Sequence record: MN850590.1
Source: Escherichia phage moha
Strand: one strand, 5' to 3'
DNA length: 64,000 nt
In this document: positions 18,026 through 19,596 of the stretch, one piece after another
How positions within the stretch are numbered: the first letter of the stretch is position 1
Layout: each line of letters starts with the position of its first letter
Position numbers and translations under genes: made by a program
The notes under the pieces: generated by a model
What the model was told of the DNA's origin: nothing
What the model saw: the letters and a program-made list of their open reading frames with translations, nothing else
The model's database searches: none

Positions 18026-18369
18026 CCAAAATGTTGGCTTTAATAGTTGGCTTGGTTTCATTTAATGCTCTTGCTAATACTACATATACTGATGTAACGG
18101 AGTATACAAACAGAACGGCGTCTGATTATTGTGGTAAAAGTCAAGAGTGTAAAGTAGATTTTTCACAAAAATTGTTATATGCGTATAAAGACGGAGAAAA
18201 AGACGGGGCGTCTAGTAGGTTCAAGGCGTCTACCTTAATTAAAAGATACTATAAAAAATGGCAAATATTAGAATGCTCGGTGGCGGAACCTAAAGATAAG
18301 GCAGCATGCAATTCTATGGTGGACCGTCTAGTTGACTCTTATAATAGAGGACTTGCAGCAAGTGATTAA
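18022..18369 (+). CDS. secreted/periplasmic protein
   Basis: 115 aa; N-terminal signal peptide. Confidence 0.75.
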   Translation: MTKMLALIVGLVSFNALANTTYTDVTEYTNRTASDYCGKSQECKVDFSQKLLYAYKDGEKDGASSRFKASTLIKRYYKKWQILECSVAEPKDKAACNSMVDRLVDSYNRGLAASD

Positions 18370-18826
18370 AAACTATATCAAGGGCGATATTGTCGCCCTG
18401 TTTTCTAAAGGTAATAATATTGCTCATGGGTGTAATTGTTTTCATACAATGGGCGCGGGTGTGGCAGGACAATTAGCAAAGGCTTATCCAAAAATTCTGG
18501 AAGCCGATAAACTTCAAACCGAATTCGGAGACGAGTCTAAACTCGGGACTTATTCGGTTTATGAAAAATATTTTAAGACCCATAAAGCTTATTGCTTTAA
18601 TCTTTATACACAGTTTGAGCCGGGACCTAATTTTGAGTACTCTGCTTTAATGAATTGTATAATAGAATTAAATGAATTCGGAAAGAATAAGATAACAAAG
18701 CCTGTAATTTATATGCCAAGAATTGGTGCAGGTATTGGTGGTGGAAACTGGGATGTCATCGAAGAGATTTTAGATACGTATTCCACTAAACTAGAAATTG
18801 TGATTGTTGATTGGGAACCTAAATGA
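18332..18826 (+). CDS. macro-domain protein (ADP-ribose binding/hydrolase fold)
   Basis: 164 aa; GDIVAL..GCNCFHTMGAGVAGQL and IGAGIGGG match macro-domain glycine motifs; start (ATG 18332 or GTG 18362) uncertain. Confidence 0.75.
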   Translation: MTLIIEDLQQVIKNYIKGDIVALFSKGNNIAHGCNCFHTMGAGVAGQLAKAYPKILEADKLQTEFGDESKLGTYSVYEKYFKTHKAYCFNLYTQFEPGPNFEYSALMNCIIELNEFGKNKITKPVIYMPRIGAGIGGGNWDVIEEILDTYSTKLEIVIVDWEPK

Positions 18827-19005
18827 AATTAACTAAAGAAGAGAAAGCTAAACTGTTCGAACTTATCCATGACCTATTGGATGAACAAGCAGCCACCAAT
18901 GCGTATGATGAATATGCTCCTTTAACAGATGAAGAATATCAAGCATTGATGGAATCATTTGACAGGAAAGAACAAGAACTCATTGACTACGTGAATTCAC
19001 TATAA
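18823..19005 (+). CDS. hypothetical acidic protein
   Basis: 60 aa; ATGA overlap. Confidence 0.6.
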   Translation: MKLTKEEKAKLFELIHDLLDEQAATNAYDEYAPLTDEEYQALMESFDRKEQELIDYVNSL

Positions 19006-19014
19006 GGGACTCTT

Positions 19015-19596
19015 ATGGCTAGTTTAATTTTTACCTATGCCGCTATGAACGCTGGTAAGTCTGCTTCATTACTTACTGCCGCACATAACTATAAAGAACG
19101 TGGCATGGGTGTATTAGTTCTTAAACCGGCTATTGATACTCGCGATTCAAAAGGTGAAATAGTCTCTCGTATTGGTATTCGTCAGGACGCCAATATAATT
19201 ACAAAAGACATGGATATCTTTGAATTTTATAAATGGGCTGCAGCACAAAAGGATATTCACTGCGTATTTGTTGACGAAGCTCAGTTCTTAACTACTGAAA
19301 AGGTGTATCAACTTAGTCGTATTGTTGACGTATACAATGTGCCGGTAATGGCATATGGACTACGAACAGATTTTAAAGGTAATCTATTTGAAGGTTCTCA
19401 AGCATTAATGGCTATTGCCGATAAGCTTGTTGAACTTAAAGGTGTCTGTCATTGTGGTAAAAAGGCCACAATGGTAGCTAGAGTCACGGAAGACGGACTT
19501 CCAATTACAGATGGCAGTCAAATTGAAATTGGTGATACCGATAGATATGTGTCATTATGCCGGAAGCATTGGAACGATTTGACAGGGTTGTTATAA
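19015..19596 (+). CDS. tk: thymidine kinase
   Basis: 193 aa; MASLIFTYAAMNAGKSASLL matches T4 Tk; P-loop and CxxC..C zinc site. Confidence 0.95.
   Translation: MASLIFTYAAMNAGKSASLLTAAHNYKERGMGVLVLKPAIDTRDSKGEIVSRIGIRQDANIITKDMDIFEFYKWAAAQKDIHCVFVDEAQFLTTEKVYQLSRIVDVYNVPVMAYGLRTDFKGNLFEGSQALMAIADKLVELKGVCHCGKKATMVARVTEDGLPITDGSQIEIGDTDRYVSLCRKHWNDLTGLL

Follow-up and report, generated by a model that had tools for sequence, protein, structure and literature searches.

A Mosigvirus ortholog of the T4 anti-DarTG2 gene tk.4 (adfM) encodes a predicted macrodomain with a glutamine-type active site

Introduction

Upstream of the thymidine kinase gene of Escherichia phage moha (MN850590.1), an open reading frame (ORF) carries the glycine-rich motifs of a macrodomain, and an earlier note on this DNA proposed that its product could reverse ADP-ribosylation imposed by host defenses. 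Which gene this is, what its active site looks like, and how its product could act are the questions addressed here. All positions refer to the window, i.e., the whole stretch of 64,000 nucleotides that was analyzed.

The gene and its start codon

The following features were recognized in the region. The comparison genome, UGJNEcP1, is a Mosigvirus that is 98 to 99% identical.

17016 to 17474: regB (T4-like order)
17483 to 18025, plus strand: vs.1, PHROG 600, function unknown
18022 to 18369, plus strand: vs (valyl-tRNA synthetase modifier), the upstream neighbor (PHROG 1256, E 1.8e-35; T4-like order)
18332 to 18361, plus strand: TTG-initiated upstream extension of the ORF, probably untranslated, overlapping the 3' end of vs (onset of homology; annotated T4 and UGJNEcP1 starts)
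18346 to 18351, plus strand: Shine-Dalgarno-like AGAGGA, 10 nt 5' of the GTG at 18362 and within the vs coding sequence (CDS), read from the sequence
18362 to 18826, plus strand: GTG-initiated predicted CDS for the Tk.4/AdfM ortholog, encoding one macro domain in 154 amino acids, plus stop (alignment of the T4 and UGJNEcP1 starts; Pfam Macro, 28.3 bits; AlphaFold2 pLDDT, 95.7; 83% identity to T4 Tk.4)
18823 to 19005, plus strand: Tk.1-like 60-amino-acid ORF, the downstream neighbor (PHROG 653, E 1.9e-20; in UGJNEcP1 the collinear ORF is the last small one ahead of tdk)
19015 to 19596, plus strand: tk (thymidine kinase), an ORF at the place of T4 tk and of UGJNEcP1 tdk in the collinear gene order

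The ORF as called mechanically runs from 18332 to 18826 on the plus strand, opens with TTG, and would encode 164 amino acids. It carries all three motifs that had been quoted for it, namely, GDIVAL (nucleotides 18383 to 18400), GAGVAGQ (18452 to 18472), and GAGIGGG (18725 to 18745), and its placement upstream of tk was likewise borne out, with one 60-amino-acid ORF between the two genes. The start at 18332 had to be revised, since it lies 30 nt upstream of the GTG at 18362, with which both the ATG of T4 tk.4 and the annotated UGJNEcP1 start align. The first ten codons of the 164-residue ORF overlap the end of vs (stop at 18369), and all tblastn matches outside Mosigvirus start at its residue 11. 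The GAGGA of the Shine-Dalgarno-like site is conserved when the T4 and UGJNEcP1 sequences are aligned. Given the vs overlap, the onset of the tblastn matches, the aligned T4 and UGJNEcP1 starts, and the conserved AGAGGA, the product is most likely a protein of 154 amino acids (18362 to 18826), and residue numbers below are counted from the GTG at 18362. The TTG at 18332 was rejected as a start on account of the T4 and UGJNEcP1 alignment and the conserved Shine-Dalgarno-like site. An antisense ORF at 18314 to 18472 (52 amino acids) was unsupported and was disregarded.

The last 8 nt of vs (18362 to 18369) overlap the start of the gene, and the equivalent overlap in T4 is ATGA. The start codon thus differs between Mosigvirus (GTG) and T4 (ATG), and both overlap the end of vs. 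This shared arrangement suggests that the gene is translationally coupled to vs.

Orthology with T4 tk.4

The DNA of the region is 99% identical to that of Mosigvirus (RB69-like, Straboviridae) genomes and ~75% identical to that of T4, and the gene order is collinear with T4: regB, vs.1, vs, the gene studied here, a small ORF, tk, and rI.1-like and rI-like genes. The encoded protein showed 83% identity to T4 Tk.4 over residues 11 to 163 of the 164-residue ORF (tblastn). By its full-length identity and its position between vs and tk, the gene is the Mosigvirus ortholog of T4 tk.4 (adfM). It is therefore already known, as a long-annotated T4 ORF with a recently assigned role. The two proteins are close in length (154 amino acids, versus 155 in T4), both genes sit between vs and tk with the same putative translational coupling to vs, and the conserved active-site residues are all identical. 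However, the T4 gene starts with ATG and its product ends in WEPLL, whereas the gene here starts with GTG and its product ends in WEPK, and here a tk.1-like ORF follows directly on the 3' side, the tk.3- and tk.2-like ORFs being missing.

Matches of tk.4 orthologs to the A1pp (macro) domain were reported by Nolan et al. in 2006 (PMC1524935). Johannesman et al. showed in 2025 that T4 keeps its DarTG2 resistance without adfA and adfN, and they predicted that another factor exists (PMC11825919). In a HIDEN-SEQ experiment, in which a T4 transposon library was grown on a DarTG2 host, tk.4 was the only significant hit, and a clean tk.4 knockout sensitized T4 to DarTG2, upon which the gene was renamed adfM (bioRxiv 10.1101/2025.11.20.689424). 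In the same preprint, T4 Tk.4 is described as structurally similar to the DarG protein of Mycobacterium tuberculosis, and enzymatic removal of ADP-ribose by Tk.4 is proposed as "likely." The reversal of host-imposed ADP-ribosylation, suggested earlier as the role of the moha protein, fits these DarTG2 genetics of its 83%-identical T4 ortholog (bioRxiv 10.1101/2025.11.20.689424). The DarTG2 phenotype was demonstrated for the T4 ortholog only, and the Mosigvirus allele differs from it at 17% of residues.

The family is broad: ~2,800 phage records gave tblastn matches, and they span many genera, including phages of Escherichia, Klebsiella, Salmonella, Pseudomonas, Vibrio, Acinetobacter, and Aeromonas. 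T-even phages carry layered anti-DarTG factors, namely, AdfA, the NADAR enzyme AdfN, and the macrodomain protein AdfM, and some of these factors are orphan copies of antitoxin-type enzymes. Database entries now labeled "phosphatase," "hypothetical protein," or "O-acetyl-ADP-ribose deacetylase" could be renamed anti-DarT2 macrodomain (AdfM/Tk.4). The remaining interest is mechanistic, as the protein has an SCO6735-like glutamine in place of the DarG/TARG1 lysine.

Macrodomain identity

The assignment to the macrodomains, made previously from the motifs, was confirmed both by sequence profiles and by the predicted fold. The Pfam Macro profile (PF01661) matched with 28.1 to 28.3 bits against a gathering cutoff of 22, over profile positions 2 to 117 of 118, and it was also matched by 61 of the 70 homologues when these were scanned singly. 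A profile built from the alignment of the 70 homologues (alignment A1) matched the solved macrodomains BT1257 (E 7e-17), TARG1 (1e-16), SCO6735 (4e-14), Poa1p (2e-13), and M. tuberculosis DarG (5e-13). Fold prediction had been proposed as a check, and AlphaFold2 did not reject a macro domain: the model computed from A1 (pLDDT, 95.7; pTM, 0.91) has the three-layer alpha/beta/alpha macro fold, and its top Foldseek match was TARG1 (4J5S; E 2.6e-10). Judged by the profiles and the model, the protein is a free-standing macrodomain of the ALC1-like/Poa1p-like class and a member of the Macro family. Both glycine-rich loops predicted to bind ADP-ribose are conserved in the alignment of the 70 homologues.

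Active site

The following active-site features were mapped.

18425 to 18439, plus strand: H22-G-C-N25-C motif (conservation in A1; mapped via BT1257 and 5E3B; roles from PMC9411070)
18452 to 18472, plus strand: loop 1, GAGVAGQ (G31 to Q37), the putative glycine-rich ADP-ribose-binding loop of the macro fold (G31, G33, and A35 conserved)
18611 to 18613, plus strand: codon of Gln84, in the N80-x-Y82-T83-Q84 motif (invariant in the 70 homologues; profile alignment)
18716 to 18751, plus strand: loop 2, P119-R-I-G122-A-G124-I-G126-G-G-N-W130, the putative diphosphate-binding loop (P119, I121, G122, and G124 invariant)

Among homologues down to ~37% identity, H22, C26, G33, A35, D49, G62, N80, Y82, and Q84 were invariant, as were P119, I121, G122, and G124. 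Nearly invariant in A1 were G8, G23, C24, N25, M30, G31, K60, L61, T83, G88, I125, G127, G128, and W130, with G23, C24, and N25 conserved in at least 90% of the sequences.

The numbering of SCO6735 was transferred by aligning BT1257 to the 5E3B chain (offset, 20), and in this mapping Val25, Asn27, Gln85, Gly126, and Gly128 of SCO6735 correspond to G23, N25, Q84, G122, and G124 of the phage protein. In SCO6735, Asn27, which is also conserved in DarG, positions the catalytic Gln, and the backbone carbonyl of Val25 holds the catalytic water (PMC9411070). Loop 1 aligns with MGAGIA of TARG1 and GWGKGF of BT1257. The position of Gln84 is that of the catalytic Lys84 of TARG1, of Lys80 of DarG, and of the essential Gln85 of SCO6735; the profile alignment sets NLYTQ of the phage protein against LITK of TARG1 and MIGQ of BT1257, and the equivalence of TARG1 Lys84 and DarG Lys80 was taken from PMC9411070. 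In loop 2, G126 is found at the position of TARG1 Asp125 (GAGIG versus GCGLD). Because Q84 stands opposite Lys84 and G126 opposite Asp125, the phage family is, by alignment, devoid of the catalytic residues of both TARG1 and DarG and has a Gln-type active site instead. This residue pattern was observed here together with the macro fold and with the orthology and synteny with T4 tk.4.

Comparison with characterized macrodomains

The Gln-type ALC1-like proteins SCO6735 and BT1257 (PDB 5E3B and 2FG1/2AFC) share only ~27 to 30% identity with the phage protein, which has the Gln at the Lys position, the locking Asn, and the Gly126/Gly128 loop that define the SCO6735 subclass. ADP-ribose that DarT has linked to thymidine in DNA is efficiently removed by SCO6735, for which Gln85 is essential: the Q85A variant is dead and the N27S variant nearly so (PMC9411070). 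The mechanism proposed for SCO6735 is water mediated and backbone assisted (PMC9411070). However, the mobile loop of SCO6735 and BT1257, which is 5 to 6 residues longer and carries Lys89 and Lys94, is missing in the phage family. Against the phage profile, BT1257 has six extra residues (glppir), and the phage loop reads Q-F-E-P-G-P-N-F-E, with no Lys. In SCO6735 and BT1257, this loop with its Lys89 contributes to DNA binding (PMC9411070). The two groups also differ in H-G-C-N-C of the phage protein versus H-[IV]-C-N-D.

DarG of DarTG2 (PDB 5M3I, 5M31/5M3E, and 7OMU) is ~20% identical to the phage protein and has Lys80 in place of the phage Gln; the phage protein differs further in having neither a C-terminal DarT-binding domain nor an adjacent darT gene. 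The DarG equivalog model NF048014 of NCBIfam, which describes a two-domain family of ~340 amino acids, scored 32.1 bits against a cutoff of 250 and was matched at positions 4 to 148 of 338. A DarG antitoxin was thus rejected as the identity of the protein on the basis of this score (32 versus 250 bits), the single domain, the lack of Lys80, and the lack of a darT neighbor, in place of which there are vs and the tk.1-like ORF. Human TARG1/C6orf130 (PDB 4J5S) has both glycine loops and P-R-I-G-x-G in common with the phage protein, whereas its Lys84/Asp125 dyad is replaced by Gln84/Gly126. A TARG1-like mechanism was rejected because both dyad residues are replaced. Poa1p, the yeast ADP-ribose-1''-phosphate phosphatase (PDB 6LFQ), resembles the phage protein in its H-S-C-N-C sequence (H-G-C-N-C in the phage protein) but carries Ser where the phage protein has Gln84 and Leu where it has Asn80, and its C-terminal half aligns weakly (9.8 bits).

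PhiKZ gp104, from a chimallivirus, is also a free-standing phage macrodomain, and its conserved Asn (N23) corresponds to N25 here. It removes DarT2-made ADP-ribose from a TNTC oligonucleotide in vitro (Cell Rep 2026, PMC13309987); mutation of the conserved Asn lowers this activity, and the protein was independently named AdfM (PMC13309987). One name is therefore in use for two remote homologues, T4 Tk.4 (2025 preprint) and PhiKZ gp104 (2026 paper). The hhalign probability for gp104 and the phage protein was 96%, at 21% identity, and BLASTP aligned 23 residues. A single family of T4-type and PhiKZ AdfM proteins was rejected, as these values make them remote homologues at best. A P-T-K motif of gp104 falls, by eye, at the DarG/TARG1 Lys position, where the hhalign alignment is gapped, so there seems to be a contrast between Lys (gp104) and Gln (T4 type) at the catalytic position. 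T4-type and PhiKZ AdfM probably stem from different macrodomain lineages that were recruited independently.

Proposed mechanism and alternatives

We consider it likely that the protein binds the ADP-ribose that DarT2 places on thymidines of single-stranded DNA (ssDNA) and hydrolyzes it by a Gln-based mechanism, so that the phage escapes DarTG2. Expression would be early, from the regB-vs-tk block, with translation coupled to vs via the 8-nt overlap. The host toxin DarT2 modifies thymidines of single-stranded phage DNA, within TNTC motifs, with ADP-ribose, and AdfM would bind the ADP-ribosyl-thymidine, with the two glycine-rich loops clamping the diphosphate. Hydrolysis of the N-glycosidic bond between the ribose and N3 of the thymine would release ADP-ribose and restore replicable DNA; the replication block set by DarT2 would thereby be reversed, and the phage would escape DarTG2 by means of an orphan antitoxin-like enzyme. 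By analogy with SCO6735, catalysis would probably be independent of lysine: the invariant Gln84, held by Asn25, would bring both the transition state and the distal ribose into position, and a backbone-held water would protonate the thymine. For the Mosigvirus protein, both the enzymatic removal of thymidine-linked ADP-ribose (dT-ADPr) and the Gln-based mechanism are what we infer. The alignments also indicate that the SCO6735 mechanism cannot be transferred wholesale to the phage protein, because both the DarG Lys and the SCO6735/BT1257 mobile loop (Lys89) are missing. It also counts against the reading as dT-ADPr hydrolysis that the T4 DarTG2 evidence comes from a preprint and that the Mosigvirus protein differs from that of T4 at 17% of residues and in its C terminus (WEPK).

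It is possible, though we regard it with some doubt, that the T4-type AdfM proteins form a separate lysine-less (Gln84) lineage rather than a captured DarG, with a distinct water-mediated catalysis and potentially a range of substrates wider than dT-ADPr. In its aligned motifs, such a lineage would mix a Poa1p-like H-x-C-N-C with an SCO6735-like N-x-Y-T-Q, without the DNA-binding loop of SCO6735. If so, a wider substrate range, including protein or RNA ADP-ribosylated by defense or phage transferases, could explain the presence of the family in ~2,800 phage genomes.

An unlikely alternative is that the protein mainly acts by stoichiometric binding of DarT2 or of its ssDNA substrate, as an antitoxin mimic, rather than by hydrolysis. 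DarT is inhibited in vitro by the catalytically dead variants SCO6735 Q85A (the strongest inhibitor), DarG K80A, and TARG1 K84A (PMC9411070), and AdfA and AdfB, the other known anti-DarT factors, seem to act by blocking DarT rather than by reversing its activity (PMC11825919). However, the ADP-ribose-binding and catalytic positions are kept across homologues down to ~37 to 40% identity, and this strict conservation indicates selection for catalysis; moreover, the phage protein has no C-terminal domain for DarT binding, the DarG profile being matched in its N-terminal part only (4 to 148 of 338).

We find it similarly improbable that the protein is a broader eraser that reverses the ADP-ribosylation or RNAylation of host proteins by phage Alt, ModA, and ModB or counters other protein- or RNA-directed defenses, with DarTG2 as one target. 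SCO6735 and TARG1, the nearest characterized relatives, accept protein as well as DNA as substrates (PMC9411070), and the spread over ~2,800 records of many genera and hosts is broader than expected of a counter-defense against a single system. Yet wild-type T4 has tk.4 and is nevertheless strongly countered by CmdTAC, an mRNA ADP-ribosyltransferase system (PMC11618068). Against the guanine-modifying DarTG1, T4 needs the NADAR enzyme AdfN and not Tk.4 (bioRxiv 10.1101/2025.11.20.689424; PMC11825919), and the preprint calls tk.4 conditionally essential on the DarTG2 host only (bioRxiv 10.1101/2025.11.20.689424).

A housekeeping role as a Poa1p-like ADP-ribose-1''-phosphate phosphatase or an O-acetyl-ADP-ribose deacetylase, as implied by database labels, is very improbable, considering that Poa1p has Ser at position 84 and Leu at the N80 position and that a pathway producing ADP-ribose-1''-phosphate (Appr-1''-p; Tpt1-type 2'-phosphotransferase) is not known in T4 infection. 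The labels "phosphatase" and "deacetylase" were inherited from the old A1pp domain name (PMC1524935) and not from assays, and the sole reported tk.4 phenotype is specific to DarTG2 (bioRxiv 10.1101/2025.11.20.689424).

Other observations on the locus

A stretch of ~410 bp that is present in UGJNEcP1 (L002, 2988 to 3399), where it holds the tk.3- and tk.2-like ORFs (70 and 68 amino acids), is absent here. The junction (window positions 18815 to 18826) falls at GAACC, a 5-bp microhomology at the very end of tk.4. As a result, the protein ends in WEPK instead of WEPLL, and the stop codon of tk.4 is fused with the start codon of the tk.1-like ORF as ATGA. The N terminus of the Vs.1 ortholog is hydrophobic and, by eye, signal peptide-like; the T4 annotation is "hypothetical," and weak matches to an SLT lytic-transglycosylase domain have been reported for vs.1 orthologs (PMC1524935).

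A scan for sigma-70-like promoters returned 8 sites, versus 10.3 expected in shuffled sequence, i.e., no excess, and is uninformative on expression. According to a 2026 preprint, RIL-seq recovered chimeras between the host small RNA ArcZ and the T2 tk.4 transcript, mislabeled there as "putative thymidine kinase"; in a delta-arcZ host, the level of Tk.4 protein was unchanged (bioRxiv 10.64898/2026.06.19.733364).

Inside the CDS, 20 nt past the start, a perfect 8-bp GC-rich hairpin (AGGGCGAU-AUU-GUCGCCCU; 18381 to 18399, plus strand) has a predicted free energy of -13 kcal/mol (z, -3.1) and is followed by GUUUUCU, with a T-run to 18406. T4 has the same stem. The hairpin forms because, in the GDIVA motif, GGCGAU (Gly-Asp) is nearly the reverse complement of GUCGCC (Val-Ala); it may therefore simply follow from the encoded residues and be neither a terminator nor an attenuator.
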